Below, piece after piece: positions 12,946 to 35,329 of a stretch of DNA of 48,995 bases (the first letter of the stretch is position 1; each line of letters opens with the position of its first letter). Under the pieces are notes generated by a model. It was not told the origin of the DNA. It was given only the letters and a program-made list of their open reading frames with translations, and did not search any database. Source of the DNA: an uncultured Bacteroidales bacterium (lineage in GTDB: Bacteria > Bacteroidota > Bacteroidia > Bacteroidales > F082); NCBI GenBank assembly GCA_937877465.1, contig CALFIT010000286.1, forward strand, positions 1 through 48,995. Direction: 5' to 3'. The position numbers and the translations under genes were made by a program.

Positions 12946-12948
12946 ACC

Positions 12949-19337: not shown

Positions 19338-20189
19338 TTATTCAGTGTATTCGCCGTGTTGAAGATCCCCCATGCTCTTCAGAATCCACACATTGCCAGG
19401 TAGAGGCAATGATCCGTTGTTGATAAGAGGTTGATACAGAATGGTTTCCTTGTTGTAGTAATACATGGACTGGGAACCGATTCTGAAGTCTTTGATGATG
19501 CGTGTTGTGAGGGTGTCAGAGGTGTTGTTGATGGTGTCGGTGGTAACGATGGTTTCCGTATCAACTTTGCCCGACATGATGACGGCGATGAGGGGTTGGG
19601 TCTTCGAACTGATGTTGCGGACTTCATAGTAGTAGGCAGTGAAGTAGGGGTCGTGTCCCATGATGTACATATACTGGAAGTCTTTGCTCGATGGGTTGCC
19701 TGACTTGAAATAGGAGGGGGCGATGGTGTCGTTGATGAAGTTGTCGAATCGCTGGTTTTGTTCAATCAACAGCATCGTGCTGTCGTTGCTTGAGTTTTCC
19801 AAAAAGATCAGCGAGCCGTTTTGGGCGTTATAGGGTCTGTTTTGGATATATTTGGCAATGCCTTTGTGTTGCTCGTAGATTTCGAAGTAGTCCTTGACGG
19901 GCAGTACCCCTGTGCGCGGTTGCCACAATGAGTCAATCTTCACAAAAGCTTCGTAGATGTAAGAGTCGACGAGGTATTTGCCATCGATTTTTGGTGGCTC
20001 GTCACCATAGTAAAGATGCTCCTGGCCAAATGCCATCAACAGACGCTGGGGCATGTAATCGTTGATGTTCGGAATCTGTTGGTATCCATAATAGATAGTG
20101 GCATTATCCTCCAGATCGTCTTTCAAACATGAGTTTAAAAGCAAAAGACCCGAGAGGAGGAGAATGGTTTTGAATAAGTGCTTCTTCAT
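19338..20189 (-). CDS. Lipoprotein of unknown function (283 aa)
   Basis: Signal plus lipobox LLLLNSC. The 24-nt gap to the downstream OMP gene suggests a two-gene operon. Confidence 0.6.
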   Translation of the reverse strand: MKKHLFKTILLLSGLLLLNSCLKDDLEDNATIYYGYQQIPNINDYMPQRLLMAFGQEHLYYGDEPPKIDGKYLVDSYIYEAFVKIDSLWQPRTGVLPVKDYFEIYEQHKGIAKYIQNRPYNAQNGSLIFLENSSNDSTMLLIEQNQRFDNFINDTIAPSYFKSGNPSSKDFQYMYIMGHDPYFTAYYYEVRNISSKTQPLIAVIMSGKVDTETIVTTDTINNTSDTLTTRIIKDFRIGSQSMYYYNKETILYQPLINNGSLPLPGNVWILKSMGDLQHGEYTE

Positions 20190-20241: not shown

Positions 20242-20249
20242 CAAATGTA
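20242..20249 (-). promoter_or_regulatory. -7 promoter box TACATTTG (minus strand) for the lipoprotein/OMP operon
   Basis: Plus-strand CAAATGTA, 53 nt upstream of the ATG at 20189. Embedded in an AATGTAA/TTACATT 7-bp inverted repeat. Confidence 0.5.
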
Positions 20250-20319: not shown

Positions 20320-23190
20320 TTAGTTCGTTATGATGACTTTTTGGGTGACGGTTATGCCTTTGTAGTTGAACACAAAGAGATAAATGCCGTCATTATAGGT
20401 GCTTATGGTGTATGGGAATGGGCGTTCGGCGATCACACTCAGTTCGAAGTCGTCGATGAGTCGGCCTATCATGTCATAGACCTTGATGGCCACTATTCCT
20501 TGCATATTGCCTAACATGAGGGTCATCTTGCCGTGATTGGGGTTGGGCATGATGGCAATATTCGGATGGCCTTCTTGCTCGTCGGTGCCGATGAAGCTGC
20601 TGATGAGCCAGAAACGACGGACGATGCCGTTGTTAGGGTCGCAGGCATTGTAGACGGTCGCACGCAGCCAAACGGTGTCTTCGACGCGGCCAGTGACGGT
20701 GACGGAACAGAATTCGCCGACGTCGCCGTAGGAGCGCAGCAGCCAGCCGGTGTTGTTCTCAAGGCTCCAAACCACCGAGTCCCATACGTTGCCTTCATTT
20801 TGGTCCCATAGAGTGAAGTCGAAGCTATTCATCTCGAATTCGGTTGGCGTAATGACCCAGTGGGGTGCCACATTATAAGGATCGGTGGAATGGATTTCTG
20901 ACGGGTTGGGTGGCACCGACAAGCTCAGTTCCAAGTGGACGATGCTGTCGCACCCCAACGAATTGGGGATGGTGTCGGTGTAAAATCCGGGCTGGCTGTA
21001 GAGTTGGCCGTGCCATTCGTAGGCCGTGCAGCCGCCGCTGACGCTGTCGGTGCCGCCTTCGACGGTGGCCGTGAGCGAGAGCCGCAGGCTGACGATGCTG
21101 TCGCAGCCGAAAGTCGAGGTGAAGACTTGGTCGTAGATGCCGTCCTCTGTGTAGGTCGTGCCGTTCCATGTGTAGGAAGCACTGCACTCGCTGTGGACGA
21201 TGGTGTCGGGGTTGATGATGCGGTCGGCCACGACGAGGTGCAGGTCGATGATGCTGTCGCAACCTTCGGGGTTAGGCTTGACGATGTGTCGGTCGTAGGT
21301 TCCAGGGTGGTCGTAGACGAAGCTGAAGCCATGTCCTTCGTAGGTCTCAGGCTCGCCAAACCAGCAGCGCAGGTCGTTGAAGGCAGCGTAGAAACCGGGC
21401 AGGGCATCGACGTAGATGAGCAGGCTGTCGCTGCATTCGGGGTGGACGGCGTTGGCGACTTCGAGACCCAAGATGGTGTCGTTGATGATGGTCACGTCGA
21501 AGCCGTGACCGGTGTAGGTGCCGCCGCTACACACCTCGGCGCCTTCGGTGAGGGTGTGCGTCCTCGTGTCGACATAATATCTCGACACGTCGATGGCCTT
21601 CCCAAACGAGTTGACGGTGAGGACGACTTCATAAATGCGCTTCTCGGCGTAGGTGTGGGTGGCGGGGTTTTGTGTGCTGGTGGCACCGTCGCCAAAGTCC
21701 CAGTCGACAGTGTAGTTGTCTTGGTTGACGTCAGCCTCAAAGGTGATGCTCTCGTCGGGGCAGTATTCGTAGGTGCCTTGTTTCGGGACCAAGGTCTCGT
21801 TGAGGGTGACGCGCGTGCTCAGGTCGATGGTCTTCGAGCCCACCAAATAGGCATAGCCTTTGGCGAAGCCGAAGCCGTAGACATGGGCGTTGAAGCCTCG
21901 CTCGCACAGCAGGTGATGCACGCCGTGCTCGATGTTTTGACGGGTGAACGAGAACTCGTCGGAGCCTTCGACGCGCTCAAACGCGCTGGCAGGCAAGAGG
22001 TTGCCGTCCAAATACACCTCGTCGACGGCGTTGTTGTTGACGATGATGTTCACATGGTGCGTGCTGATGTCGATGTTCTCGTCGTTGAAGGTGGAGAAGG
22101 TGATTTCGTCGATGCGTTGCTCGACGGGGGCAATCCAAACCACCGAAGGGTCACCGATGCTGTTGTTGCCTCTCGTGGTGTTGTAGAGGTAGACGGCTGC
22201 GGCCCCCGACGACTCGATGAGGCACGATTTCTCGGTGCTCGTCAGCTCGAAGATGTAGGATTCGTTGGCCTGCAGGCTGACCAAGAACTGCCCGTTTTTG
22301 AGGATGGTGTTGTCGTTTGACGAGGAGGTCACCTTCACCATGTCTTTCTCGCGTTCGAGCGAGTTGGTGACCACGAATTTCTTGCCCCACGATTGCAGAG
22401 GCATGGCTTGCTCGAAGATGTGGTCGAAGCTGCTGCCGTTGTTGGGAATGGCGGTCAGGTTGTTGCCGTTGTAGACGGCGATGGGCTTACCGTCGCGTGC
22501 CGTCACCCGTGAGCCGCTCAGGTCGCGCATGTCGCTGTTGCTGTTGGAACGCACTTGGTAGGTCTGTCCTTGGTTCAGCTGCACGCTGAAGGTCTGGCCC
22601 GCCGCATGTCCGTTGAGGGTTTGGGTGGCCGGCGTGATGTCGACGGTGGTGTTGTTTTCGGTGGCCACGATGAGAAAGGCGCTGGTTTGGTTTTGGGTTT
22701 GGAAAGGCTGGTTCGAGGAGATGTGCGACTGGTCGTAGGTCTGTATGATGTAGTCGTCGGCAAGGCTTTGGATGGGCAGCACATACGAGGCATCGAACGA
22801 GAGGTAGGCGATGTTGGTGCAGAAGACCGAAACGGTGTCGGAGCAACTGACCAAGATGCCTTTGTTCTGTACCTGTTCGGAGTTGCCGTCGATGTAGGCC
22901 ACGTCTTCGGGGATGTCGACGGTGGTGATGTTGTCGGCTTGCACGGTGAAGTCGGTGCTCCAGCCGGTTTGTGGGTTGGTGATGGTGCCAGTGCAGTCGG
23001 TCTTCGAGCTGATGAGCACTTGGGTGAGGAGCCAGTTGCCGTTGTTGGGGGCGCTGGAGTGGTATTTGTGTCCGTTGGTCATAAACGAAACCCAAAACTC
23101 CGTGCCTTGCGTCGAAGCGTCTTGTGCCTTGGCGGTAATTGCGGCGAGCAGCAATGCTGAAAGGATGGCAAAAGGTTTGAAAATCTTCAT
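20320..23190 (-). CDS. Type-A modular T9SS cargo protein (about 956 aa): IgGFc-binding-like N-domain, PKD, 4 two-Cys repeats, pre-CTD module, CTD
   Basis: Start moved to MKIFKPFAILSALLLAAITAKAQ (ATG at 23190). The ORF-track start at 23229 would overlap the upstream gene. Motifs: QGTEFWVSFMTN, FDHIFEQAMPLQSWGKKFVV, PKD WDFGDGATSTQNPATHTY, GCDSIV repeats, CTD MPNPNHGKMTL... Confidence 0.75.
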   Translation of the reverse strand: MKIFKPFAILSALLLAAITAKAQDASTQGTEFWVSFMTNGHKYHSSAPNNGNWLLTQVLISSKTDCTGTITNPQTGWSTDFTVQADNITTVDIPEDVAYIDGNSEQVQNKGILVSCSDTVSVFCTNIAYLSFDASYVLPIQSLADDYIIQTYDQSHISSNQPFQTQNQTSAFLIVATENNTTVDITPATQTLNGHAAGQTFSVQLNQGQTYQVRSNSNSDMRDLSGSRVTARDGKPIAVYNGNNLTAIPNNGSSFDHIFEQAMPLQSWGKKFVVTNSLEREKDMVKVTSSSNDNTILKNGQFLVSLQANESYIFELTSTEKSCLIESSGAAAVYLYNTTRGNNSIGDPSVVWIAPVEQRIDEITFSTFNDENIDISTHHVNIIVNNNAVDEVYLDGNLLPASAFERVEGSDEFSFTRQNIEHGVHHLLCERGFNAHVYGFGFAKGYAYLVGSKTIDLSTRVTLNETLVPKQGTYEYCPDESITFEADVNQDNYTVDWDFGDGATSTQNPATHTYAEKRIYEVVLTVNSFGKAIDVSRYYVDTRTHTLTEGAEVCSGGTYTGHGFDVTIINDTILGLEVANAVHPECSDSLLIYVDALPGFYAAFNDLRCWFGEPETYEGHGFSFVYDHPGTYDRHIVKPNPEGCDSIIDLHLVVADRIINPDTIVHSECSASYTWNGTTYTEDGIYDQVFTSTFGCDSIVSLRLSLTATVEGGTDSVSGGCTAYEWHGQLYSQPGFYTDTIPNSLGCDSIVHLELSLSVPPNPSEIHSTDPYNVAPHWVITPTEFEMNSFDFTLWDQNEGNVWDSVVWSLENNTGWLLRSYGDVGEFCSVTVTGRVEDTVWLRATVYNACDPNNGIVRRFWLISSFIGTDEQEGHPNIAIMPNPNHGKMTLMLGNMQGIVAIKVYDMIGRLIDDFELSVIAERPFPYTISTYNDGIYLFVFNYKGITVTQKVIITN

Positions 23191-23201
23191 GTCGGTTGAA
23201 T

Positions 23202-25613
23202 TTAATGAATTGTTATTGTTTTCTTGCACAAGGTGCCTTCCTTGCCCGTGGCCACGAAGAGGTAGATGCCGTCGGAAAGGTTTTTCATCTCGTAGGGACA
23301 GGTCAGGGAGCCTTGGCTGTTGTAAATCTGGAAATGGTCGATGATGGTGCCGCGCATGTCGTACACCTTCATGTCGATGGTGCCGGTCAGGTGCTCGAAG
23401 TGGAGGGTCATCTGGCCGTTGTTGGGGTTGGGCGCGACGCTGAACAAGGCCGGCTCTTCGTTATTTTCCTCGGTGCCGAAGAAGGAACTGACGAACCAAT
23501 AGCGGCGCACGATGCCTTCGGGATGGCACTTGTTGTAGACCTTGGCATCGAGCCAAATGGTGTCGTTGACGTGTTCAAGGACGTACATCTTACAGACGAT
23601 GCCTTTCGGATGGGCGTTTTCGTCGGGCACAAGGAGCCAACCGATGCCGGTGTTCTCGAAGGCCCAAGTGACGGAGTCCCAATGGCACGCGGTGTTGTAG
23701 TCCCAGAGGTAGAAGTCGTACGACATGATTTGGAACTCGGTGGCGGTGATGACCCAATGGGGCGCGGTGTTCATGGTATCCTTGGGATAGATCGGGGTGG
23801 GGTCGGGGGTGTATTCCAAGTCGAGGTCGAGATGCCCGATTTGGTAGCATCCCGTAGTGGGGTCGGGAAGGGTGTCGGCGTATGCACCGGCGACGAAATA
23901 GGTCTGGCCGTTAAAGTCCCAAGTGTAAGCATCGCAGTCCGTGGCCGAAACGGGTTCGATGTCTTCGAGATTGGAGGTGATGTAAAGCTTTGAGGTGATG
24001 CCCGAGGTGGAACCGCCGCCGCAGGGGTTCTCTTGTGTTCGCACCGTAAGGGTGGCTTCGTAGAAGGCATAGCTCTCGTAGGTGTGCGTGGCGGGATTGT
24101 CGGTGCTGGTGGTGCCGTCGCCAAAGTCCCAAAGCAGCTCGTAGTTGCTCAGGTTGATTTCGGCGGCAAAGGTGAGAGGCTCCAAGAAGCAGTTCATGAT
24201 GGTGTCGTTGGGCGCGACCGTTTCGCCGTTGACGATGAGGGTGGTGGAGAGGTCGGCGGTTTTCGAGCCAACCATGTAGGCATAGCCCCTTGCGTCGCCG
24301 AAGCCGTAGATGTGGGCGTTGAAGCCGTTGGGACAGCTCAAGTGGTGTACGCCGTGCGTGATTTGCGCCCTGTAATAGCTGTAGTCGCTGTTGCCCGCCA
24401 CGGCATCGAATTGTCCTGACGGCAAGAGCGCATTGTCCATATAGACCTTGTCAACGTCTTGACTCTCAACGATGATGTTCATGTAATGGTTGCTGATGTT
24501 GACGTTGCTGTGGTCGTAGTTGAAGGTCGAGAAGGTGATTTCGTCGATGCGTTGCTCGATGGGGGCAATCCACACCATCGACGGGGCGCCGTTGCCCGAA
24601 CCGTTTGAGCTGGTGTTGTAGAGGTAGACGGCGCAGCTGTGGGTGGCTTCGAGATAGCACGATTTCTCCGAACTCGAGATGCTGATGCTTCGCGACTCGT
24701 TGGCATTGAGGGTGAAAAGCACTTCGCCGTTCTTGCGGATCACGTTGCCGTCAGCCGACGAGGTGATTTTGTAGTAGTCTTGGCTTCGTCCCAACGAGGT
24801 GGTGACGACAAACTTCCTGCCCCACGAGCGCAAGGGCATGGCCTGCTCAAACACGCAGTCGCAGTCGCTCGACGCGCTGACGGGAATCAGGGTGAGGTTG
24901 TTGCCGTTGAAGATGGCGATCTTCTTGCAGTCGTGGGCGGTGACGCGCGTCCCGCTCAGGTCGCGGTTGCTGTTGCTGTCGCTTGAGCGCAGCTGGTAGG
25001 CTTGCCCCTTGTTGAGCACGATGCTGAACTTCTGATGGGCTGGCTTGCCGCCAAAGGTCTTCACCGATGGCGTGATGTCGATGGTGGTGTTGTCTTCCGT
25101 GGCCACGATGACGAAGGCGCTGGTGGGGTCGTAGGTGCTGGTGTAGTTCGACTGGTCGAAGGTCTGGATGATGTAGTCGTCGGCCAAGCCCTCAGTGGGC
25201 AACACATAGGAGGCGTCAAACGAGTAGGTGGCGATGTTGGCGCAATACACCGAAACGGTGTCGGTGGTGCTGATTTGCAGCCCTTTGTTGACCACTTGCT
25301 CGTATTCCGAGCTTTCAACATACACTTGCGTTTCCTCAAGGTCGACAGAGAAGATGTTGTTGGCTTCCACGCTGAAGCTTTGCGACCAGCCGGTGTTGGG
25401 GTTGGTGATGACGCCCGTGCAGCTCCGTTGGGCACTGACCATCAGTTGCACGCGCACCCAGCCGTTGGGGTTGTTGGGATGGTATTTGAACCCGTTCCCG
25501 ATGAAGGAAAGCCAAAACTCCTTGCCTTGCGTCGAGATTTCCTGCGCGTTTGCGGCATTGATGCCTCCGAATAGAGCCAAAGCCATGAGTGCCAATATCT
25601 TGAAGTGCTTCAT
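23202..25613 (-). CDS. Type-A modular T9SS cargo protein (803 aa): IgGFc-binding-like N-domain, PKD, 1 degenerate two-Cys repeat, pre-CTD module, CTD
   Basis: Motifs: QGKEFWLSFIGN, CDCVFEQAMPLRSWGRKFVV, WDFGDGTTSTDNPATHTY, APHWVITATEFQIMSYDFYLWD, CTD APNPNNGQMTLHFEHL... Only 11 nt to the downstream gene. Confidence 0.75.
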   Translation of the reverse strand: MKHFKILALMALALFGGINAANAQEISTQGKEFWLSFIGNGFKYHPNNPNGWVRVQLMVSAQRSCTGVITNPNTGWSQSFSVEANNIFSVDLEETQVYVESSEYEQVVNKGLQISTTDTVSVYCANIATYSFDASYVLPTEGLADDYIIQTFDQSNYTSTYDPTSAFVIVATEDNTTIDITPSVKTFGGKPAHQKFSIVLNKGQAYQLRSSDSNSNRDLSGTRVTAHDCKKIAIFNGNNLTLIPVSASSDCDCVFEQAMPLRSWGRKFVVTTSLGRSQDYYKITSSADGNVIRKNGEVLFTLNANESRSISISSSEKSCYLEATHSCAVYLYNTSSNGSGNGAPSMVWIAPIEQRIDEITFSTFNYDHSNVNISNHYMNIIVESQDVDKVYMDNALLPSGQFDAVAGNSDYSYYRAQITHGVHHLSCPNGFNAHIYGFGDARGYAYMVGSKTADLSTTLIVNGETVAPNDTIMNCFLEPLTFAAEINLSNYELLWDFGDGTTSTDNPATHTYESYAFYEATLTVRTQENPCGGGSTSGITSKLYITSNLEDIEPVSATDCDAYTWDFNGQTYFVAGAYADTLPDPTTGCYQIGHLDLDLEYTPDPTPIYPKDTMNTAPHWVITATEFQIMSYDFYLWDYNTACHWDSVTWAFENTGIGWLLVPDENAHPKGIVCKMYVLEHVNDTIWLDAKVYNKCHPEGIVRRYWFVSSFFGTEENNEEPALFSVAPNPNNGQMTLHFEHLTGTIDMKVYDMRGTIIDHFQIYNSQGSLTCPYEMKNLSDGIYLFVATGKEGTLCKKTITIH

Positions 25614-25705
25614 ATTCGAGTTTTTTTGTGCGACAATGCCGTTTAATAATTAATAGGTGCAGCTTGGGTCGAAATACTAACGCGCAAGCATGGGGTTGTT
25701 GTGGC

Positions 25706-28348
25706 CTATGGTGCCACGACGACTTTCCGTGCCACGGTGCCGTTGCGTCCTGTGACCACGAAGAAATAGATGCCTGAGGCATCGGTGCTCATATGGTAGG
25801 TGAGGGAATGGTTATCGGTTTCGTTGTGGGTCACGAATCGGTCGAGCAGCGTGCCTCTCATGTCGTATACTTTGACTTCAACGGGACCGAAGAAGTTCTC
25901 GAAGTTGAGCGTCATCTGCCCGTTGTTGGGGTTGGGTGCCACGCCGAAGTCGGCCATGTTGTGTTCGTCCACGTCATAGAAGGAGCAAACAAACCAATAC
26001 CTGCGCTCGATGCCTTGTGGGGCACAGTCATTGTAGGCCTTGGCACTGAGCCATACGGTGTCGTCGACACGCTCAAGGACATACATCGTGCAACTCAGTC
26101 CTTTTGGGATAGAGCTTTCGTCGGGTTCAAGGATCCACTGGATGTCGGGGTTGGCAAACGCCCATGTGACGGAATCCCAATGACAGGCCGTGTTGTCGTC
26201 CCACAAATAGAATTCGTAGGAGTTGATCTGGAACTCGGTCGCGGTGACCACCCAGTGCGGAGCGGTGTTGTCGGGGTCTTTGGGGAAAATCGGGGTGGGA
26301 GTGGGGGTGTATTGCAGACTGAGGTCGAGGTGGACGATGCTGTCGCAACCCATTGGGGTGTAGAGGTTCTCGGTGTAAACGCCCGGCGTTGTGTAGGTCA
26401 TGCCTTGCCAATCGTAGCTGTCGCAAGTTGACACAACGAGCGGCTCGGTGTCGACATGGCCATACACGCGGATGTTCACGTCGACAATCTGTGTGGTGTA
26501 TCCGTCGTTGACGGTGCAGGTGAAGACGGTCGTGCCTACGGGCGGCGTGGCCACGGGGTCTTGTATGTTGGCGTTGTTCAGCAGGTTGGCGGGCGACCAG
26601 CTGTAGGTGTAGCTGCCCGTGCCGCCCAAAGGCAGGGCATGAAGGGTTGTCGTCTCGCCGTCGCAAAGGATGTATTGGTCGGCGGAGGCTGTGGCAGTCA
26701 GGTTGGAACCGGCCATGACGACGGTGACCTGCGCCGTGTTGGTGCAGCCGCCTTCAAGGTTGGTGACGGTGACGGTGTAGACCTGCGTCTCCTCCAAGTT
26801 CACGGTCTGGGTGGTGGGACTGTTGGGGTCGACGACCATGTTGGCCGGCTCCCAATGGTAAGTGCAATGGCTTGCGTTTGTCGCCTCCGCGCCGATGGTG
26901 GCGATGCCTCCAAAGAAGACGGAGGCAGGCTCAGCCGACGTGGCGATGGCGGGAATCGTGTACACCGAAACGGTTTGCGTCTTTTGGTCGGTACACATGT
27001 TGTAGGTGGTGCCCACGCTGAGCGTCACCTCATATTCGCCGGCTTGGGCGTAGGTGTGCGAGGGGTTCGTTTCGTCGCTCGTATGGCCGTCGCCAAAGTC
27101 CCATTCGATGTGCTCGATGGCTTGCCCTGAAGGGTTGGTAGTCGAGGTGTTGGTGAACTGCATGGGGCTGCCTTCGCAAACCGCGACGAAGCTGAAGTCG
27201 GCGGTGGGTTGCGCCACCACTTCAACAAAATCGGTCTCGGCGCTGCTCGTCTCGTTGCCCACGGTGATGGTGCAGGTGTAGACGCCGGCCATCTCCATCG
27301 TGCAGTTCGGGATGACGGGGTTTTGCTCCGTTGAGTTGAAGCCGTTGGGACCGCTCCAGCTGAAGGTGGCGCCAATCTGGTTTTGTGCCGTCAGGTTGAT
27401 GGTCTCGCCCACGCAATAAGGGCCGCCGCCGTTGACCAAAGGCGGCAGGATGCTACAGTCCGTGGTGCCCGTCCCCGTGTTCTCGAACGAGATGTTGCAA
27501 GGGCTGTTAGAGAAGTTGGTAATCAGCAAGATGTAGTATTCTCCGCTTTGCGCGTTGTTGATGTGGCAATTCTCGGTTGCGCTGGTGCTGTAGCTGCAAT
27601 CAACGATGTTGCTGCATGCTAACATGTCGCAGGCCGTGGACATGTCGGTAAACGGGCCCCAGCAGTCAAAGTCGATGTCGACGAGCGGGGTGCTGTACAT
27701 GTAGATGTTGAGGTTGCCGGGTTCGTCGATTCTCAGGAAATAGAAAGCGGGATTGGGGGCCGTCGAGAGGCAGTTCGAGGATTGTCCGGGCGTGCCTGAA
27801 CAGGCGTAAGGGTCGCTGCAATGCGCGTTGTAGGTGTCGCCGCAGGGCGAACCTGAATTGGTGCCTGCCGGGAAGGAATAAAGCCCCACATCGGTGCAGA
27901 AGGGTGAAGCCGTTTCGCATGTGGCGTTGTCGGAGGCGACGCCTCTCGTGAAGTCCTCGTAAAGGGTCTTGAAAACCTCGTCGTCGATGCCGTAGCGCCA
28001 TTGCACGAAAAGCTCGCCGCGCTGGTTCTTGTCCAAATAGCTGAACTCGTTGCGTTGCTCAAACAGGAGGTTGTCGAAAAAGAAATCAAAATCCGACAGC
28101 TCGTCGGGGGCGTCGTTGCCCACATACACGTCGATGGTGTTGGCCTTGTCGGGGTTCTTGTAGCAGAAATAGCCGTGGTCAAGGATGGCGTGTACCACAA
28201 AGACCCGTTCCTCGATGGTCGGGATGTGGGAAACGCTGAATTCCGACACCTTGATTTGACGCGGCTGCTGGGCAAACTGCTTCGTCGGGATGGCGCAGAG
28301 AAGCAGGACAGCCATAAAGAAAACACTATTTTTGCTTGTTGGTTTCAT
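25706..28348 (-). CDS. Type-B modular T9SS cargo protein (880 aa): N-domain, Cys-rich PPC-like domain, Ig-like, PKD, Ig-like repeats, 1 two-Cys repeat, pre-CTD module, CTD
   Basis: Motifs: signal MAVLLLCAIPTKQFAQ, PFCTDVGLYSFPAG...DIDFDCWGPF...GEYYILLITNFSN, GGPYCVGETINLTAQ, PKD WDFGDGHTSDETNPSHTY, GCDSIVHLDLSL, CTD APNPNNGQMTLNFENF... Confidence 0.75.
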   Translation of the reverse strand: MKPTSKNSVFFMAVLLLCAIPTKQFAQQPRQIKVSEFSVSHIPTIEERVFVVHAILDHGYFCYKNPDKANTIDVYVGNDAPDELSDFDFFFDNLLFEQRNEFSYLDKNQRGELFVQWRYGIDDEVFKTLYEDFTRGVASDNATCETASPFCTDVGLYSFPAGTNSGSPCGDTYNAHCSDPYACSGTPGQSSNCLSTAPNPAFYFLRIDEPGNLNIYMYSTPLVDIDFDCWGPFTDMSTACDMLACSNIVDCSYSTSATENCHINNAQSGEYYILLITNFSNSPCNISFENTGTGTTDCSILPPLVNGGGPYCVGETINLTAQNQIGATFSWSGPNGFNSTEQNPVIPNCTMEMAGVYTCTITVGNETSSAETDFVEVVAQPTADFSFVAVCEGSPMQFTNTSTTNPSGQAIEHIEWDFGDGHTSDETNPSHTYAQAGEYEVTLSVGTTYNMCTDQKTQTVSVYTIPAIATSAEPASVFFGGIATIGAEATNASHCTYHWEPANMVVDPNSPTTQTVNLEETQVYTVTVTNLEGGCTNTAQVTVVMAGSNLTATASADQYILCDGETTTLHALPLGGTGSYTYSWSPANLLNNANIQDPVATPPVGTTVFTCTVNDGYTTQIVDVNIRVYGHVDTEPLVVSTCDSYDWQGMTYTTPGVYTENLYTPMGCDSIVHLDLSLQYTPTPTPIFPKDPDNTAPHWVVTATEFQINSYEFYLWDDNTACHWDSVTWAFANPDIQWILEPDESSIPKGLSCTMYVLERVDDTVWLSAKAYNDCAPQGIERRYWFVCSFYDVDEHNMADFGVAPNPNNGQMTLNFENFFGPVEVKVYDMRGTLLDRFVTHNETDNHSLTYHMSTDASGIYFFVVTGRNGTVARKVVVAP

Positions 28349-28391
28349 TGTTGACTTTTAAATATGTCGCTTGTTAAAATGAAAAATATGG

Positions 28392-31300
28392 TTATCTCTG
28401 GAGGATGACTTTCTTGGCGATGGTGCCTTCTTTGCTCGTCGCTACCAAGAAATAGATGCCGTCGGCTCTCGACGACATGTCGTAGAGCAACGAACTTGAG
28501 CTCATGTCGCTGAAAGTCTGTATGTTGTCGATGAGCGTGCCTCTCATGTCGTACACTTTGATGTCGATTTTGCCCGTCAGACGCTCGAAGTTGAGTGTCA
28601 TCAGTCCGTTGTTGGGGTTGGGCGTCACACTGAAGTCGGCCATGGTGTGCTCGTCAACATCATAGAAGGAGCAGACGAACCAATAGCGGCGGTCGATGCC
28701 TTGTGGCGCGCATTCATTGAAGGCTTTGGCGCGGAGCCAGATGGTGTCGTCGACGTGTTCAAGGACATACATCCTGCAGGTCTTGCCTTTCGGATAGGTA
28801 GTAAGGTCTGGCTCAAGCACCCAATCCAAGTCGGGATTGTCGAACGACCAGGCGATGGAGTCCCAATGGCATGAGGTGTTGTAGTCCCAAAGGTAGAATT
28901 CGTAGGACATGATCTGGAACTCGGTGGCCGTGATGACCCAGTGCGGCGCGGTGTTGGTGGGGTCGGTGGGGAAAATCGGGGTGGGGTTGGGGGTGTATTC
29001 CAAGTCGAGGTTGAGACGGAGGATGCTGTCGCAGCCCAAGGCGGTCGCAAGCACCTTCTCGTAGCTGCCCGAGGCGGTGTAAAGGGAGTCGATCCAGAAA
29101 TAGGCGTCGCATTCGTCGATGTCTAAGGTCGCGCCTTCCACTGCGCCCGAGATGAGCAGGTGGCAGTCGACGATGCTGTCGCAGCCGTCGTAGGTCGTGA
29201 ACAGCTGGCTATAGGTGCCGGTGGCCGAATAGTTCTCTCCGTTCCATTCAAACACACCGCAGGTGATGGTGTCGAAGGAGGTGTGTTGGGGCATGCCTAA
29301 GGTGAGGTGCATGGTGACGATGCTGTCGCAACCGCCCACGGAGGCATAGAGCCGCTCATAAGTGCCTGGACTGTTGTAGGTCTGGCCGTCCCAAACGTAG
29401 GTGCTGCTGCATTCGTGGTGGTCAAATTCGTAGGTGACGCGGTCGGCCACGGTGAGGTGCAGGCTGACGATGCTGTCGCAGCCGTCGACGCTTTCCAAGC
29501 TGAGCTGTCGGTCGTATTCGCCCGGGTGGTCGTATTCGAAGCTGAACCCGTTGCCGTCGTAGATGCCAGGCTCCCCGTGCCAGCAGCGGCTGTCGTTGAT
29601 GGGGATATGGTATTGCGGACGCGCCGTGATGTATAGCAACAGGCTGTCCTTGCATTCGGGATAGACGGGGTTGTCTTGCAGACGACTCAATATGGTGTCG
29701 TTGTTGATGAGAATGTTGTTGAAGCCGTGGCCGCTGTAGAGTTGGCCGGCGCAAGCCTCGTCGCTTTCGGTGACGTATTGCTGGCTGAGGTCCACAAAGA
29801 AATAGGTGGTGTCGCTCGACGAGGCGGTGCATCCGCTGGCATCGGTGGTGATGGCCAAGGCCACGCGATACACTTGCTTGTCGTGGTAGGTGTGCGTGGC
29901 GGGGTTGGCGGTGCTGGTGGCGCCGTCGCCAAAGTCCCAAAGCAGGTCGTATTGCTCGTAGTTGACCTCGGCGGCAAAAGTCATGGTGTTGTCGATGCAG
30001 TATGGGAAGCTCTCGTTGGGCTTCACTTCTATGTCGTTGATGGTCATCGTCGAACTCAAGTCGATGGCGTTGGAGCCGACGAGATAGGCATAGCCTTTGG
30101 CATTGCCGAAGCCGTACACATGGGCGTTGAAGCCGTTCTCGCAGGCGATGTGGTGTACGCCGTGGCTGATGTTCATCCTCGTGTAGCTGTAGTTGCTGTT
30201 GCCGTTGACGCGGTTGAAACTCAAGGGCGAGATGAGCTGGCCGTCGAAGTAAACATTGGCGATGTCTTCGGTCTTGACGATGATGTTGACGGAGTGGTTG
30301 GTGATGCCGATGTTGGCATGGTCGAAGGTGGAGAAGGTGACTTCGTCGATGCGCTGCTCGACGGGGGCTATCCACACCATCGAGGGGTCGCCCAAGCCGC
30401 CTCCGGGGTTCTGGTCGTAACTGGAGTTGTTGAAAAGGTAGACGGCGCTGGGTTGCGTGGCCTCAAGGAAGCACGAGCCTACGCTTTCGTTCATCGAGAA
30501 GGTGTAGGACTGGTAGGCCCGCAAGGTGGTCAGGCTGTCGCCGTTCATGGTGATGACGTTGTTGTTGGCGCTCGACGTGATCTTGATGAAGTCGCGGTTG
30601 CGGTTGAGCGAACTGGTGACCACGAAGTTCTTGCCCCACGAGCGCAGCGGCATGGCTTGCTCAAACACATGGTCGTAGCCGTTGCCCATGTTGATGGGGA
30701 CGCAGGTGAGGGTGTTGCCGTTGAAGACGGCGATGCGCTTGCAGTCGCTGGCGAGGATGTGGGTGCCGCTCAAGTCGCGTTGCGAACCCGAGCGCACCGA
30801 CCTGACGTGGTAGGTCTCGCCGGCGTTCAAGGTGATGCTGTAGGTCTCGCCGGCGACATGTCCGAGCAAGGTGGCGCAGCTCGGCGTGATGTCGATATGG
30901 GTGTCGTCTTCCGTGGCCACGATGACGAAGGCGCTGGTCTCGTTGTTGTAGACGTAGGCGTTCATGCTGCCTGCCACCGACTGGTCGTGCGACTGGATGA
31001 TGTATTCGTCGCCCAAGCTCTCAACGGGCAAGACGAATGAGGCGTCAAACGAAACGTAGGCGATGTTGGTGCAATACACCGAGATGGTGTCGTTCGCCTC
31101 CACCTTGATGGCTTTCTGCGTGATGGTTTCATAAGTGTAAGCGTCGTGATAGCCTTGTGCTTCGGGGATGTCGAGGATGGTGGTGTTGTTGGCGGTCACG
31201 TTGAATTCCCGTGTCCAACCCGTCAGTGGGTTCGAGATGGTGCCCGAGCAGTCGCGCTTGGCACTGATGAGCACTTGGTTGATGACCCAGCCGCCGCCTG

Positions 31301-31439
31301 AGGTGTGGTCGCGGAAACCGTTGTGCATGAACGAGAGCCAAAACTCCTTGCCTTGTGTCGATGTGTTTTGGGCCAACGCCGCCGGCATGGCAAGGCTGAA
31401 AAGAAGAAGCAATGATATTGTTTTTTTGATGAGATTCAT
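28392..31439 (-). CDS. Type-A modular T9SS cargo protein (1015 aa): IgGFc-binding-like N-domain, PKD, 5 two-Cys repeats, pre-CTD module, CTD
   Basis: Motifs: QGKEFWLSFMHN, YDHVFEQAMPLRSWGKNFVV, WDFGDGATSTANPATHTY, four GCDSI plus one ECKDS repeat, CTD TPNPNNGLMTLNFERL... Confidence 0.75.
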   Translation of the reverse strand: MNLIKKTISLLLLFSLAMPAALAQNTSTQGKEFWLSFMHNGFRDHTSGGGWVINQVLISAKRDCSGTISNPLTGWTREFNVTANNTTILDIPEAQGYHDAYTYETITQKAIKVEANDTISVYCTNIAYVSFDASFVLPVESLGDEYIIQSHDQSVAGSMNAYVYNNETSAFVIVATEDDTHIDITPSCATLLGHVAGETYSITLNAGETYHVRSVRSGSQRDLSGTHILASDCKRIAVFNGNTLTCVPINMGNGYDHVFEQAMPLRSWGKNFVVTSSLNRNRDFIKITSSANNNVITMNGDSLTTLRAYQSYTFSMNESVGSCFLEATQPSAVYLFNNSSYDQNPGGGLGDPSMVWIAPVEQRIDEVTFSTFDHANIGITNHSVNIIVKTEDIANVYFDGQLISPLSFNRVNGNSNYSYTRMNISHGVHHIACENGFNAHVYGFGNAKGYAYLVGSNAIDLSSTMTINDIEVKPNESFPYCIDNTMTFAAEVNYEQYDLLWDFGDGATSTANPATHTYHDKQVYRVALAITTDASGCTASSSDTTYFFVDLSQQYVTESDEACAGQLYSGHGFNNILINNDTILSRLQDNPVYPECKDSLLLYITARPQYHIPINDSRCWHGEPGIYDGNGFSFEYDHPGEYDRQLSLESVDGCDSIVSLHLTVADRVTYEFDHHECSSTYVWDGQTYNSPGTYERLYASVGGCDSIVTMHLTLGMPQHTSFDTITCGVFEWNGENYSATGTYSQLFTTYDGCDSIVDCHLLISGAVEGATLDIDECDAYFWIDSLYTASGSYEKVLATALGCDSILRLNLDLEYTPNPTPIFPTDPTNTAPHWVITATEFQIMSYEFYLWDYNTSCHWDSIAWSFDNPDLDWVLEPDLTTYPKGKTCRMYVLEHVDDTIWLRAKAFNECAPQGIDRRYWFVCSFYDVDEHTMADFSVTPNPNNGLMTLNFERLTGKIDIKVYDMRGTLIDNIQTFSDMSSSSLLYDMSSRADGIYFLVATSKEGTIAKKVILQR

Positions 31440-31459
31440 TGGTTGAGGTTTCTAAAAGT

Positions 31460-31485
31460 GGGAGACGCGATGGCTCGCGCCTCCC
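31460..31485 (-). other. Intra-operon GC-rich hairpin between the 1223-aa and 1015-aa genes
   Basis: Minus strand reads GGGAGGCGCGA-gcca-TCGCGTCTCCC (11-bp stem) followed by ACTTTTAG. The core GAGGCGCGA/TCGCGTCTC is identical to the terminator at 18382-18402. Confidence 0.55.
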
Positions 31486-31503
31486 AAAATACATAAAACG
31501 TAA

Positions 31504-34500
31504 TTAATGCTGTATAACAACTTTCTTGGCTACGGTGCCTTCCTTGCTTGTCGCAATGAAGAAATAGATGCCATCCGTCCGGCTCCTCATGTCATATTGA
31601 TAGGTGCCAGGACCGGCGTTATTGTAAGTCTGGAATTTGTCAATCAGCGTACCGCGCATGTCGTATACCCTGATGTCAATCTTGCCAGAGAGTTGCTCGA
31701 AGTTGAGCGTCATCTGTCCGTTGTTGGGATTGGGGATCACGTCGAAGTCTTTGGGCTCGGCTTGATGCTCCTCGACGCCGATGAACGAACTGATGAGCCA
31801 ATACTTCCGCTCGATGCCATCGCTGGGTGAGCAGCGGTTGAAGGCACGGGCATTAAGCCAAACGGTGTCGTTAACCCAACTGAGCACATACAACCTGCAG
31901 CAAGCGCCATTCGTTCCAAAAGGTTCAAGCACCCAGTCCAAGTTGGGATTGTCGAACGACCACGAGATGGAGTCCCAATGGCAGTTCGGGTTCTGGTCCC
32001 AAAGATTGAAGTCATAGGTGTTGATTTGGAACTCGGTGGCTGTGACGACCCAGTGTGAAGTCGTGTAATCCATCGGGTAAATGGGCGTGGGGTTGGGCGT
32101 GTATTCAAACTGCACGTTCATTGTCACGATGCTGTCACAGTCCGAGTTGTTCTTGTAGGTCCTGTGGTAGACGCCCGACATATCGTAAACCAAGCCTTCG
32201 TGGTCGGTCGAGATAATCTCGTGCCCTTGGGGGTCCCAGAAGTATTCGTTGCAGTTCTCTTCGTCGCTGACGGTGAAAGTATATTCGTCGTGGTCGTTGA
32301 TGGTGAGATGCAGTGTGGCTTCGCTGTCGCAGCCGTAGGCGTTGATGTAATGATGCGTGTAGACGGTGCTTTCCGTGAAGGTCATGTCGACGTTGTAGGT
32401 GTCGTTTTTCCAACGGTAGGCATCGCAACTTGTGACAACCACCTCGTCGTCGAAACTCGGTCTGAGTTCGAGATTGAGAATCAGCGTACTGTCGCATGAG
32501 TTGGCATATTGCAGCGTGTCGAAGTAGATGCCGGTCTCATAATAGGTGTGTCCGTTCGAGGGCCATGTGTATTCGGTGGCGCAAAGCGACACAACATAGG
32601 TCTTGGAGTTGTATTCCGCCTCTTCAACGGTCAGGTAAACGATGCTGTCGCAGCCGGCTTGCGTTTGGAACACAAGCTCGTTGGGGATGGGGCTGGGTTG
32701 GAAGTAGGTGTCCAACGGAGCAAAGTAGTAGCCTGGGCCTCCTTCGCAAGTCGATTCGGTCAGATACACTTCATAGCTTGGATCTTGGATGAGGTTCAGC
32801 CTGATGATGCTGTCGCAGCCGTTGACGGTTTCGAGGGTGTGGTAATAGACACCCGAACTCGTGATAGGCTCTCCGAAGAAGCTGTAGGTGTCGCCTTGGC
32901 AGAAGTGGTCTGAGATGGAGGTCTCGTAGGTCTCGTGATGGGTGAGGTGCAGATGGATGGTGCTGTCGCAACCGTGTTGCGAAACAACGATATGGTCGTA
33001 GTCGCCTTCCTCGGAGAGGATCTCGCCGAAGAAGTTATAGGTGTCGTCGGGGCAGATGCTCACGTTGATGTCGGACTCGACGTGGGGATAGACGTAGACG
33101 CTGACGCTGACGTCTTGCGCCGAGAGGCCGTCGCTGACATGGCAGGTGTAGGTGGTGAGCCCAAGGGGCGGCGTAGCCACCGGGTCTTGGATGTTGGCGT
33201 TGTTGAGGGTGTTGGCTGGTGTCCAGGCAAAGGTGTAGTTGCCCGTGCCGCCCGAAGGCTCGGCATGGAGCATCGTGGATTCGCCTTCGCAAAGCTCGCT
33301 GTTATCGGCAGAGGCCGTGGCCATCATGTTGGAGCCTTCGATGACTACGGTGACACGACCCGAACCCGAACAGCCGCCTTGGGGGTTGGTGACGGTGCAA
33401 GTGAATTGCACGTTCTCATAAAGCGGGACGGTTTGAGTGGTCTGGCTGTTGGGATTGACGACCTTGTTGGCGGGCTCCCAACGGAAGTTGAAGGTGCCTT
33501 GCGTGCCCGCAGTGGCGGTGAGGGTGGTGGTGCCACCATAGATGACCGTGCTGGGGTTGGCCGACACGGTGGGTGTCGGCAGCGCGTTGACAGGTACCGT
33601 GCGGGTTGTCACGTCGGAGCACATGTTGTTGGCCGTCTGCACGGTGAGGGTCACTTGATAGCTACCCGCTTGCGCATAGGTGTGGCTTACGGTCTGGCCC
33701 GTGCCGGTCTGTCCGTCGCCGAAGTTCCACTGATAACTCGAGATTTGGCCTGTCGAAGTGCTGGTGAACTGAGTGGCGGTGCCTTGACAAACGGTGGTGA
33801 AGTTGAAGTTGGCGGTCGGCTGGGCAACGATGGTCACCGGAAGGGTCTTCTCGCTGGTGCAATGCCCTCCGCACGAAACGGTGAGCGTCACTTGGTAGGT
33901 GCCTGCGTTGGTATAGGTGTGCGAAACGCTGGCGCCCGAGCCGGTCTGTCCGTCGCCGAAGTTCCATTGGTAGCTCTGGATGGGCTGCCCCGTCGGGTTG
34001 GTGGTCGAGGTGCTGTTGAATTGCACGGCGTTGCCCGCGCAGGCGGCGGTGTAGGTGAAGTCGGCGGTGGGTTGGGGATAAATGACGACTTCCGTCGTGG
34101 CGCTGTTGGTCTGGCTACCCACAGCGATGGTGCAGGTGTAGGTGCCGGCCATGTTCATCGTGCAGTTCGGACGGGTCGGGTTCTGCTGGTTCGAACTGAA
34201 GCCGGCAGGGCCTGTCCAGCTGTAGCTTGCGCCCGACTGGCCGTTGGCGGTCAGGCTGATGGTCTCGCCCACGCAATAGGGGCCGCCGTTGTCGACCAAG
34301 GGAGGCAGGATGCCGCAGTCGGTGACGCCCGTGCCGCCCACCTTACTGAAGTTGATGTTGCAAGCTTGGTTCGAATAGTTGGTGATGACCAAGATGTAAT
34401 ACTCGCCTGTCTGCGAAGTGGCTGGAATCATGCAGTGTTCGGTGGCGGCGGCAGAGTAGCTGCAACTCACCACCTTGTCGGAGGTCAGTCCGTTGGGGCA

Positions 34501-35175
34501 AGGCGTCGTTTCGGGAATGGTGGGGTCGACGCTGTAAGGCCCCCAGCAGCAGAAGTCGATGTCGTGGCTCGGTGTGCTGTACATGTAGATGTCGATGCTG
34601 CCTGCGGGACTGCCGATTCTCATGTAATACCAAGCGGGGTTGGGCTGCGTGTAAAGGCAGCTGTAGTAAGGTCCCGATTCGCCCGAGCCGGCATTCACGC
34701 CCGCCGGAAACTCATACATTCCGTTGTCGGTGCAGAAAGGGTCGGCAAGGACGCAGAGATTGTTGTCACGCGACCTCGCGTAGATGTCCATCATCAACGA
34801 CATGGTGAAGTCGTTGGGCAGCGCGGCCTTGAGGGCAGCCGCGGCTTCTGCGGCTTGCTCCTTGTCCATCATCGAAAACGCAGCGGCGTTTTGCGTGCGA
34901 AATTCGTTGTAGGCCTCTTCCAAGTTGAGCCCTTCAAAAGCCTCGTTGGCACTGACGATGAAGATGCCGTCGCGCTCGCTGGTGATGACGTCGAAGCGGC
35001 TGTCGTTGGCCAAGTTGTAGAGCGTGAAGACGCGCTCGTCGAAGTTGGCGATGTCAGTGATGTTGAACTCGATGGTTGGCTGGCCGTGGACGGTTTGGAC
35101 TGGCTGAGCGAACTGTCTCAAAGGCATGGCCAACAGCAACAGGGTTGCACAAATGATTCTCGTAAAGCTTTTCAT
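31504..35175 (-). CDS. Type-B modular T9SS cargo protein (1223 aa): N-domain, Cys-rich PPC-like domain, Ig-like, 2 PKD, Ig-like repeats, 6 two-Cys repeats, pre-CTD module, CTD
   Basis: Motifs: PFCTDNGMYEFPAG...DIDFCCWGPY...GEYYILVITNYSN, GGPYCVGETISLTAN, two PKD units (WNFGDGQTGSGASVSHTY, WNFGDGQTGTGQTVSHTY), six CDS[IT] repeats, CTD IPNPNNGQMTLNFEQL... Confidence 0.75.
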   Translation of the reverse strand: MKSFTRIICATLLLLAMPLRQFAQPVQTVHGQPTIEFNITDIANFDERVFTLYNLANDSRFDVITSERDGIFIVSANEAFEGLNLEEAYNEFRTQNAAAFSMMDKEQAAEAAAALKAALPNDFTMSLMMDIYARSRDNNLCVLADPFCTDNGMYEFPAGVNAGSGESGPYYSCLYTQPNPAWYYMRIGSPAGSIDIYMYSTPSHDIDFCCWGPYSVDPTIPETTPCPNGLTSDKVVSCSYSAAATEHCMIPATSQTGEYYILVITNYSNQACNINFSKVGGTGVTDCGILPPLVDNGGPYCVGETISLTANGQSGASYSWTGPAGFSSNQQNPTRPNCTMNMAGTYTCTIAVGSQTNSATTEVVIYPQPTADFTYTAACAGNAVQFNSTSTTNPTGQPIQSYQWNFGDGQTGSGASVSHTYTNAGTYQVTLTVSCGGHCTSEKTLPVTIVAQPTANFNFTTVCQGTATQFTSTSTGQISSYQWNFGDGQTGTGQTVSHTYAQAGSYQVTLTVQTANNMCSDVTTRTVPVNALPTPTVSANPSTVIYGGTTTLTATAGTQGTFNFRWEPANKVVNPNSQTTQTVPLYENVQFTCTVTNPQGGCSGSGRVTVVIEGSNMMATASADNSELCEGESTMLHAEPSGGTGNYTFAWTPANTLNNANIQDPVATPPLGLTTYTCHVSDGLSAQDVSVSVYVYPHVESDINVSICPDDTYNFFGEILSEEGDYDHIVVSQHGCDSTIHLHLTHHETYETSISDHFCQGDTYSFFGEPITSSGVYYHTLETVNGCDSIIRLNLIQDPSYEVYLTESTCEGGPGYYFAPLDTYFQPSPIPNELVFQTQAGCDSIVYLTVEEAEYNSKTYVVSLCATEYTWPSNGHTYYETGIYFDTLQYANSCDSTLILNLELRPSFDDEVVVTSCDAYRWKNDTYNVDMTFTESTVYTHHYINAYGCDSEATLHLTINDHDEYTFTVSDEENCNEYFWDPQGHEIISTDHEGLVYDMSGVYHRTYKNNSDCDSIVTMNVQFEYTPNPTPIYPMDYTTSHWVVTATEFQINTYDFNLWDQNPNCHWDSISWSFDNPNLDWVLEPFGTNGACCRLYVLSWVNDTVWLNARAFNRCSPSDGIERKYWLISSFIGVEEHQAEPKDFDVIPNPNNGQMTLNFEQLSGKIDIRVYDMRGTLIDKFQTYNNAGPGTYQYDMRSRTDGIYFFIATSKEGTVAKKVVIQH

Positions 35176-35251
35176 GTGTAGATTGTTTATCGTTTAACTT
35201 CAGATTTTGTCTGTTTGTTGATGCTTCCAAAAAGCACTAATTATCAACCGA

Positions 35252-35259
35252 CAAATATA
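35252..35259 (-). promoter_or_regulatory. -7 promoter box TATATTTG (minus strand), candidate promoter of the five-gene array
   Basis: Plus-strand CAAATATA, 77 nt upstream of the ATG at 35175 and downstream of the terminator at 35303-35329. No TAnnTTTG box seen in the four internal intergenic gaps. Confidence 0.5.
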
Positions 35260-35302
35260 CAAATAATCCTCAAAATAGAATGCAACTATGGAAAAAAAAG
35301 CG

Positions 35303-35329
35303 AAAAAAGCGGCTTAAGGCCGCTTTTTT
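35303..35329 (-). terminator. Rho-independent (palindromic, potentially bidirectional) terminator of the C25 pair
   Basis: AAAAAAGCGGC-ttaag-GCCGCTTTTTT. On the minus strand it is followed by more Ts (CGCTTTTTTTT). Lies 25 nt after the stop at 35354. Confidence 0.8.

Follow-up and report, generated by a model that had tools for sequence, protein, structure and literature searches.

The stretch of DNA analysed here, referred to as the window, is a 48,995-nt contig (CALFIT010000286.1) from an uncultured Bacteroidales bacterium. On its minus strand, between positions 20320 and 35175, it carries five adjacent genes for large cargo proteins of the type IX secretion system (T9SS). The proteins are of two types, A and B, with different N-terminal heads and one C-terminal tail in common. 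On balance, these five genes probably form the cargo core of a conserved, lineage-specific, co-expressed surface-protein module of rumen and hindgut Bacteroidales. The module has the composition (x) P (P) - Bn - An - l - o - P, in which P stands for a gingipain-like C25 peptidase, l for a lipoprotein, o for a beta-barrel outer-membrane protein (OMP) and x for a further cargo protein. For the A/B set itself, the best inference is a co-expressed set of surface adhesins or coat proteins; a new kind of secretion or defence system is not revealed by the analysis.

Read in the direction of transcription, the five genes follow the order B-A-B-A-A: B1 (B-alpha; 31504-35175, 1223 amino acids (aa)), A1 (A-alpha; 28392-31439, 1015 aa), B2 (B-beta; 25706-28348, 880 aa), A2 (A-beta; 23202-25613, 803 aa) and A3 (A-gamma; 20320-23190, 956 aa). 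All five open reading frames (ORFs) are intact and co-oriented and have the lengths given in a preliminary description of this DNA, which was also correct in its intergenic gaps of 64, 43, 92 and 11 nt. The start of A3 was placed at the ATG at 23190; the mechanically called ORF begins at an upstream GTG, which would yield 969 aa and an overlap with the A2 gene. The genes had been called giant, which is a generous word for proteins of 800-1200 aa, and they are indeed large T9SS cargo genes. They had also been drawn as one 14.9-kb unit. The block is real and incomplete, as it sits within a co-oriented run of T9SS cargo genes at 13419-46141, and the unit as drawn leaves out the l-o pair with its own promoter, the flanking C25 peptidases and a stem-loop at the junction of B and A. 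The conserved cluster spans 13.4-46.1 kb of the window in the order y x P P, then B A B A A, then l o, then P, with the A/B block as its middle.

To place this cluster among its relatives, gene order was mapped with hidden Markov models built from the window's own domains. We found 147 related loci, all from uncultured herbivore-gut Bacteroidales. A scan anchored on A, run over species-representative genomes, yielded 68 loci, almost all in metagenome-assembled genomes of uncultured Bacteroidales/Bacteroidia from ruminants and horses, with the labels RUG, RGIG, Tb.RUG and 'Candidatus Limimorpha' among them. Homologues of A and B are abundant and restricted to uncultured material. In the prevailing arrangement, B B A (A)(A) l o P, the genes are without exception co-oriented, and the same order was recovered by B-anchored and l-anchored look-ups and by a B-anchored metagenome scan. 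Copy number varies from locus to locus, with about 1-3 B and 1-4 A genes, and x and y recur upstream of the module in relatives.

Each A or B gene of the window has orthologues in other species that are 66-81% identical in the head. Those of B1 (66-73%) and B2 (72-81%) keep the order B-alpha before B-beta, with the B2 orthologue elsewhere standing directly before the first A gene. Orthologues of A1 (75-81%) are always the first A gene, those of A2 (74-79%) always the second, and those of A3 (69-76%) always the last before l-o, so that A-alpha precedes A-beta and A-beta precedes A-gamma across species. In the loci L006 and L007, for example, the order is B-alpha (72%) B-beta (81%) A-alpha (80%) A-beta (76%) l o P, and in L008 and L015 it is B-alpha, preceded by a B gene of uncertain group, then A-alpha A-beta A-gamma l o P. 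Within the window, head identity is 38% between B1 and B2 and 56-57% among A1, A2 and A3.

These comparisons bear on the earlier suggestion that the alternation of B and A arose by duplication of a two-gene unit. Because orthologues of 66-81% identity lie elsewhere in B B A A order, and the paralogues of the window are far less alike, B-A-B-A-A is a local permutation of B-B-A-A-A in which B-beta and A-alpha have been swapped. On the same head identities, a recent duplication of a B-A unit is excluded, and an ancient one is not the parsimonious reading. A conserved B-A alternation was looked for in the relatives. The order B A B A was seen only in the window, its close relative L153, L024 and L050, and L086 has yet another permutation, B A A B A. 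Given the age of the paralogues and the usual order, the alternation is derived and rare.

Both heads also occur outside the module. The B head is found in solo genes and in 'B o P' loci that have no A gene, and A genes stand without B genes in 'y A' and 'A l o' loci. In L037, L053, L056, L058, L060 and L063, an A-type gene (head 66-71% identical to that of A1) follows a y homologue, and no B, l or o gene lies near it; these are second loci in some of the same genomes. Additionally, T9SS proteins of 2700-3300 aa in metagenome loci (L089, L091, L093, L097 at 2165-12073, L102, L103, L106 and L112) hold a B head internally near the C-terminus, 64-72% identical to the B1 head, together with several repeated domains not seen in the window genes. 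Its presence in these large unrelated proteins marks the B head as a mobile domain.

Transcription of the A/B block would start at a Bacteroidota-type -7 box (consensus TAnnTTTG; TATATTTG, 35252-35259, minus strand) upstream of B1. A strong intrinsic terminator with a 12-bp stem and a T-run (35302-35330, minus strand) follows the upstream C25 peptidase gene and sets the 5' limit of the unit. The box is part of a 15-mer, TATATTTGTCGGTTG, located 77 nt 5' of the B1 ATG. Thirteen other loci carry the exact 15-mer 5' of a B gene, at a distance of about 80-95 nt from the start codon in those that could be judged, and in L008, L009, L015, L027 and L045 the gene is confirmed as the B-alpha orthologue. 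The preliminary description had noted this one box before the first gene and none in the four internal gaps, and a survey of the minus strand from 18 to 36 kb bears this out. The other TAnnTTTG sites in that interval lie at 28888 and 29392, both inside the A1 ORF, at 20242 and at 18312. The site at 20242-20249 (TACATTTG, minus strand) lies in the 130-nt gap 5' of l and is the candidate l-o promoter; the one at 18312 (minus strand) lies upstream of the downstream C25 peptidase gene, C25a. A terminator follows o at 18377-18407 (minus strand), with a 14-bp stem and a T-run.

Across 72 related loci, TAnnTTTG boxes are concentrated at one junction. They were found in 41 of the 49 gaps between A and l (median length 121 nt), compared with 10 of 44 gaps between two B genes (44 nt), 6 of 43 between B and A (52 nt), 2 of 47 between two A genes (64 nt) and none of 60 between l and o (23 nt). 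A sigma-70 promoter scan was uninformative, with 10 sites against 7.7 expected, the promoter model being of the wrong type for Bacteroidota. Because the 5' promoter is conserved, the gaps are short and boxes within them are almost absent, one transcription unit from B to A is the best reading of the sequence. The single operon from B1 to A3 proposed earlier largely stands on these grounds, qualified by the stem-loop that follows B1. The frequency of boxes in the A-to-l gaps supports a second predicted unit, l-o, with its own conserved promoter, which may also receive read-through.

The stem-loop lies in the B1-A1 gap at 31459-31486 (minus strand) and had been missed before. It has a GC-rich stem of 12 bp, GGGAGGCGCGA-GCCA-TCGCGTCTCCC, followed by ACUUUUAG, with a folding energy of -24.3 kcal/mol (z -4.7). 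It matches a hairpin at the junction of the last B and first A gene of relatives, where equivalents of the form GTAGAGACG....CGTCTCTAC lie in many loci 10-21 nt past the last B and 19-31 nt ahead of the first A. Among nine such B/A hairpins, 99.1% of cells are paired and 7 of the 12 pairs show compensatory changes; none of 500 shuffles reaches the observed values, no slid register comes close, and the G-U pairs are valid on the sense strand only. In the window the hairpin, although placed after B1, has stayed with A-alpha, which fits the swap of B-beta and A-alpha.

The B/A hairpin belongs to a larger family with the core GAGACG...CGTCTC, often flanked by GTA...TAC, whose members stand 10-50 nt after the stop codons of B, o, P and other genes. 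There are 30 sites in loci L001-L072, plus the two in the window (31459-31486 and the related sequence at 18377-18407 after o, both minus strand), and a T-run is present in some copies and absent in others. Such hairpins may be a typical 3'-end element of the lineage. For the B1-A1 hairpin, a riboswitch-like element specific to the cluster was weighed and set aside, since related hairpins follow many other genes; it is more likely a lineage-typical 3'-end element at a conserved position.

With respect to the proteins, the proposal that type A opens with an IgGFc-binding-like head followed by a PKD unit agrees with Pfam. A1, A2 and A3 match IgGFc_binding (FCGBP_N, PF17517) over its full length (E 6e-58 to 7e-62; 197-210 bits at a cut-off of 25.6; profile positions 1-297 of 297), and each also has one PKD unit and a Por_Secre_tail. 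The conserved FCGBP_N region starts right after the signal peptide, with the Pfam match at 132-443 in A1. Binding of immunoglobulin by the A proteins is unsupported; the Pfam family name is itself disputed, and binding of IgG Fc has been contradicted for purified human FCGBP (PMC11796319).

Type B does begin with a different N-terminal domain, a head without a meaningful Pfam match (at E<=10 only ScdA_N, E 0.14), followed by weak Ig_2/Ig matches (immunoglobulin-like, Ig), one to three PKD/PKD_4 units and a Por_Secre_tail. The earlier label "PPC-like" for part of this head is unconfirmed, as PF04151 is unmatched at E<=10. This head, made up of an alpha/beta part and a Cys-rich beta-sandwich, is an undescribed domain. 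The sequence motifs quoted for the two types, TQG[KT]EFW.SF and FEQAMPL.SWG..FVV in A and GGPYCVGETI.LTA in B, are all present. By eye, all five proteins have a signal peptide, with an MK... start, a hydrophobic core and an A-x-A/AQ site, and all five end in a T9SS type-A sorting domain, the C-terminal domain (CTD), recognised by PF18962 (Por_Secre_tail; 30.7-43.3 bits, cut-off 27) and by TIGR04183 (25.4-45.6 bits, cut-off 23). The latter, from NCBIfam, was the sole addition made by that database for the window genes.

That both types end in the same tail was also stated before, and in all-against-all BLASTP comparisons A and B tails are 42-62% identical over 240-450 C-terminal residues. The common region, about 250-450 aa, is more than the 75-aa sorting domain. 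Inspection by eye and a DNA repeat analysis divide it into two-Cys repeats of 50 aa (C..Y.W.G..Y...G.Y......GCDS...L.L) in one to about six copies, a pre-CTD domain of 115-130 aa (YTP.PTPI.P.D..NTAPHWV.TATEFQI.SY.F.LWD...C.WDS..W...) and the CTD. Nothing meaningful was found in Pfam, even at E<=10, for the two-Cys repeat, the pre-CTD domain, the B head or the lipoprotein l. At the DNA level, the repeat of about 150 nt (motif GCDS..L.L) is present in at least 15 copies across A1, A3, B1, B2 and the upstream peptidase gene C25b, within 20900-36300 on the minus strand (e.g. 29012-29502, 32304-33040 and 35881-36272).

In full, B1 consists of a signal peptide, an alpha/beta subdomain, the Cys-rich beta-sandwich head (~30-290), an Ig unit, two PKD units and two Ig units, followed by about six two-Cys repeats, the pre-CTD domain and a type-A CTD. 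B2 has a head of the B1 type (38% identity), then Ig, one PKD, two Ig, one two-Cys repeat, the pre-CTD domain and a type-A CTD. In A1 the signal peptide and FCGBP_N head are followed by PKD, four to five two-Cys repeats, the pre-CTD domain and a type-A CTD. A2 has the FCGBP_N head, PKD, one two-Cys repeat, the pre-CTD domain and CTD; A3 has the same head and PKD unit, three to four two-Cys repeats, a divergent pre-CTD domain and the CTD.

AlphaFold models built from alignments reached a mean predicted local distance difference test (pLDDT) score of 80.7 for A2 and 69.6 for B2, the latter with poor stretches in the head and in the single two-Cys repeat. Both are all-beta, multi-domain and rod-like, and B has a short helical N-terminal subdomain. 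In the B2 model the head contains a beta-sandwich at about 200-290 with a pLDDT of about 70-80. Searching the PDB with the full-length A2 and B2 models turned up only generic Ig or beta-sandwich arrays, which left the FCGBP_N head and the B head without a fold assignment.

Heads and tails have evolved differently. Over 955 orthologue pairs whose heads match at 70-85% (median 76%), the median tail identity is only 52%. Pairs from the same locus, the majority of which have unrelated heads, show a tail identity of 53%. In 133 of 178 genes, one tail within the locus is closer than the mean of the orthologues' tails, and the tails of neighbouring genes tend to be the most similar. The window follows this pattern. 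Tail identity is 68% between A1 and B2, 64% between A1 and A2 and 63% between B1 and A1, and only 55% between A1 and its L007 orthologue, whose head identity is 80%. A-gamma stands apart, its tail being 43-45% identical to the others. As judged from these identities, the heads evolve as five old orthologue groups, with tails exchanged or homogenised within the cluster, and the tail behaves as an exchangeable stalk-and-anchor cassette, pointing to a portable stalk for display.

A set of independently acting paralogous T9SS adhesins, brought together by tandem duplication and tail recombination and only incidentally co-transcribed, would account for part of these observations. Cargo genes of the T9SS tend to be numerous and to lie in clusters, recombination occurs among the tails of a cluster, gene order and copy number differ between loci, and the two heads, unrelated in sequence, are both found in other contexts. 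Against this, the order of the five groups, l-o and the C25 gene is conserved across species whose heads differ by 20-30%. The placement of the promoter and of the B/A hairpin is conserved as well, and this exceeds what a passive cluster would lead one to expect. We therefore hold independent action to be unlikely, though it keeps a share of the probability.

Directly downstream of the A/B block, l (19338-20189, minus strand) encodes a 283-aa lipoprotein with the lipobox LLLNSC, and o (18435-19313, minus strand), 24 nt after l, a 292-aa beta-barrel. In all cases seen, l comes after an A or B gene and is followed by o (60 of 60 l-containing loci, and likewise in the l-anchored look-ups). The lipoprotein has no relative in Pfam, NCBIfam or a PDB profile search and forms a narrow family of 195 clusters among 5.8 billion proteins. 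For the OMP, a set of 1.84 billion proteins gave only 107 representatives at E<=1e-3; OMP_b-brl_2 is the sole match of o and of 26 of 29 relatives, and o has no match in NCBIfam or in a PDB profile search. Its residues 275-292 form a conserved C-terminal extension, FPLKK.L.GAC..WGEY, with a nearly invariant Cys, which is unusual in that a beta-barrel would normally end in an aromatic residue. A PorP/SprF-type partner was considered for o and rejected, as PF11751/TIGR03519 are unmatched and the adjacent cargo is of type A, not type B, in its sorting domain. In L017, L020, L022, L029, L059, L061 and L144 the l-o pair is duplicated and also follows the B block (e.g. B B l o A l o A o P), which points to the pair being tied to a cargo block rather than to the whole cluster.

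The A/B block is flanked by C25 peptidase genes on both sides. C25a (13419-18257, minus strand; 1612 aa), with a propeptide and a type-A CTD, lies downstream and closes the module as its conserved final gene. Upstream lie C25b (35354-40117, minus strand; 1587 aa) and, 24 nt before it, a second C25 gene (40142-43630, minus strand; 1162 aa). The three are 37-43% identical to one another, match PF01364 (E 1e-37 to 1e-43) and PF08126, and each has a propeptide and a CTD. In C25b, the one checked, the His and Cys align with the GHG and C-x-x-G motifs of RgpB, so the catalytic dyad is kept. The C-terminal 340-420 aa of C25b (two-Cys repeats, pre-CTD domain and CTD) are 25-29% identical to A/B tails; among the three peptidases it alone has these repeats and the pre-CTD domain, and C25a has only the CTD in common with A and B. 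Farther upstream are the cargo genes x (43751-44527, minus strand; 258 aa) and y (44564-46141, minus strand; 525 aa), both with a type-A CTD.

This arrangement could also be read with the peptidases at its centre, the A and B proteins being their non-catalytic partners in capture or adhesion, perhaps processed by them, for the acquisition of protein or peptide in the manner of RgpA/Kgp/HagA. The C25 genes flanking the block in the window and most relatives, the intact dyad of C25b and the tail that it has in common with A and B speak for such a role. However, the A and B proteins lack any Cleaved_Adhesin or haemagglutinin domain in Pfam, C25a resembles them only in its CTD, some modules have no adjacent C25 gene (L001, L025, L031, L057 and L064), and the C25 genes of the window have their own promoters and terminators. 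By analogy such a peptidase-centred module may be entertained, and we regard it as decidedly unlikely.

A more speculative proposal, argued by analogy and to be given little credence, makes l-o a dedicated platform in the outer membrane for the docking or assembly of type-A cargo that carries the pre-CTD domain, with A, B and C25 as parts of one surface organelle whose stoichiometry would be set by the stem-loop. If it were true, homogenisation of tails within a cluster would reflect co-evolution with the platform, and l-o would be a cargo-specific T9SS accessory analogous to PorP/SprF.

The preliminary description went further and suggested that B and A work as a pair, for example as a heteromeric adhesin, filament or coat. 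Functional linkage is supported, as the B and A families cluster together in one orientation, probably within one transcript, in dozens of species-level genomes, all five distinct orthologue groups have been kept, as non-redundant subunits would be, and one tail is common to both families; an obligate B-A heteromer born of a duplicated two-gene unit is nevertheless very improbable, because paralogues far older than the species splits usually stand in B B A A(A) order, B and A numbers are unequal and variable, the B and A blocks are often split by their own l-o pairs (L017, L020, L022, L029, L059 and L061), and each head occurs without the other. A strict 1:1 heteromer is thus unlikely. In all, the layout and the operon idea of that description largely stand, and its reading as a duplicated heteromeric pair does not.

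Taking a co-expressed module as the preferred reading, a working model can be outlined. The conserved promoter 5' of B-alpha would drive a polycistronic unit through the last A gene. The stem-loop after the last B in the ancestral order, and after B1 in the window, is probably a partial terminator or 3'-end stabiliser; as an attenuator or stabiliser it would make the upstream B product more abundant than the products downstream. The l-o pair would be transcribed from its own conserved promoter. By what is known of the T9SS, the proteins would be exported by Sec and pass through the outer membrane by the T9SS, and the PorU sortase would remove the CTD and link the protein to anionic lipopolysaccharide (A-LPS). 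The heads would then be displayed on a common stalk, as a surface binding or coat set, beside gingipain-like peptidases, one of which carries the same stalk. That the set works together as an adhesin or coat array, that the hairpin sets its stoichiometry and that l-o assists anchoring may be said with low certainty.

Several observations weigh against this reading. None of the T9SS core genes (PorK/L/M/N, Sov, PorU, PorV) lies in the 49-kb window, and for that reason the case for secretion is built on the sorting domains alone. The two TAnnTTTG sites inside A1 are possible internal promoters, in a number such as chance would give. As for the hairpin, the set of nine was picked for folding and a DNA palindrome would yield the same pair counts; most copies lack a U-tract, which makes a terminator function uncertain; and the related GAGACG...CGTCTC hairpins at many other gene ends mean that it may be a generic 3'-end element. 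The likeness of tails within a cluster could come from shared constraint, from gene conversion or from the swapping of domains. Long and nearly identical stretches of DNA between tails were looked for and not found, the best being 79-83% over 145-300 nt, so that the exchange is not recent and homogenisation is old or partial. Parts of the B-head model fall below a pLDDT of 50, so that confidence in it is modest, and the full-length A2 model recovered from the PDB only generic beta-sandwich arrays, at a template modelling (TM) score of about 0.1.

The remainder of the window is of a different character. G+C content is 44-49% at both ends and 55-61% in the cargo genes. The plus strand of positions 1-13000 holds ordinary neighbours, including a Band 7/SPFH protein, a TPR/DUF6377 protein, an ABC ATPase and an ADP-forming acyl-CoA synthetase-like protein (CoA_binding_2, Succ_CoA_lig, ATP-grasp_5). 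Also there are two tandem CotH kinase-like genes (7359-9245 and 9247-11115, plus strand) with Fn3_assoc, CHB_HEX_C_1 and a T9SS type-A sorting domain; secreted CotH-family proteins are unusual for a gut Bacteroidales genome. Three ORFs, at 46283-47293 (minus strand), 47818-48927 (minus strand) and 12106-12945 (plus strand), have no Pfam match, and the 336-aa member of the three starts with a lipoprotein-like signal (...VAIVSCKKED).

Ruminant and equine guts commonly harbour the uncultured lineages that carry the module (RUG/RGIG genomes, 'Candidatus Limimorpha' and relatives). The module is present in most of the species-level genomes recovered and is therefore likely to be a major feature of their cell surface. 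Besides its two cargo families it brings together undescribed parts, namely the B head, the two-Cys repeat, the pre-CTD domain and the envelope proteins l and o, and offers a defined target for metatranscriptomics, metaproteomics and heterologous expression. Its conserved heads and exchangeable tails make it a clear natural example of modular evolution in T9SS cargo.

In agreement with the preliminary description, no described system fits the arrangement; literature searches on IgGFc/PF17517, the T9SS, the rumen and Limimorpha found no paper on the module. Proteins with the architecture of the A proteins, FCGBP_N at the extreme N-terminus with PKD and a Bacteroidota secretion tail, were catalogued by Lang et al. 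2016, mostly from Flavobacteria, Cytophaga and Sphingobacteria, with CHU_C or SprB domains and with their function not established (PMC4948705). Unlike that set, the A proteins of the window come from gut Bacteroidales, have a type-A CTD, a two-Cys stalk and a pre-CTD domain, and belong to a fixed multi-gene module. B proteins resemble GhpA of Aureispira (PDB 9flp), a T9SS-type surface protein of 5898 aa built of Ig-like strings, which the B profile matches in 22 stretches (E 5e-146) and to fragments of which the Ig/PKD string of B2 aligns with TM scores of 0.45-0.54 and 20-24% identity. The B head, two-Cys repeats and pre-CTD domain are not part of these matches, so that the likeness is at the level of single, generic Ig/PKD domains, and nothing indicates that A or B proteins form hooks.

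Three further systems offer partial parallels. In sprB-sprF, as here, an OMP gene directly follows its cargo, in our case together with l; in contrast, o is not of the PorP/SprF type and its cargo has a type-A CTD. In Tannerella forsythia, tfsA and tfsB are two adjacent, co-transcribed genes for large S-layer cargo proteins with type-A CTDs, thought to act together. The likeness to side-by-side cargo is by analogy only: the names TfsA and TfsB did not appear in the PDB or literature searches and no Tfs sequence was compared, and the module differs in having 1-3 B and 1-4 A genes, l-o and C25 peptidases. In Porphyromonas gingivalis, the gingipains and HagA have adhesin regions in common, and rgpA, kgp and hagA are dispersed. 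The module resembles them in its C25 peptidases with propeptide and CTD and in a C-terminal region that is common to peptidase and non-catalytic proteins and bears signs of exchange. Unlike in rgpA, kgp and hagA, the common region is not Cleaved_Adhesin (neither this nor a haemagglutinin domain has a Pfam match in the A, B or C25 genes of the window), and the genes stand contiguous and co-oriented.

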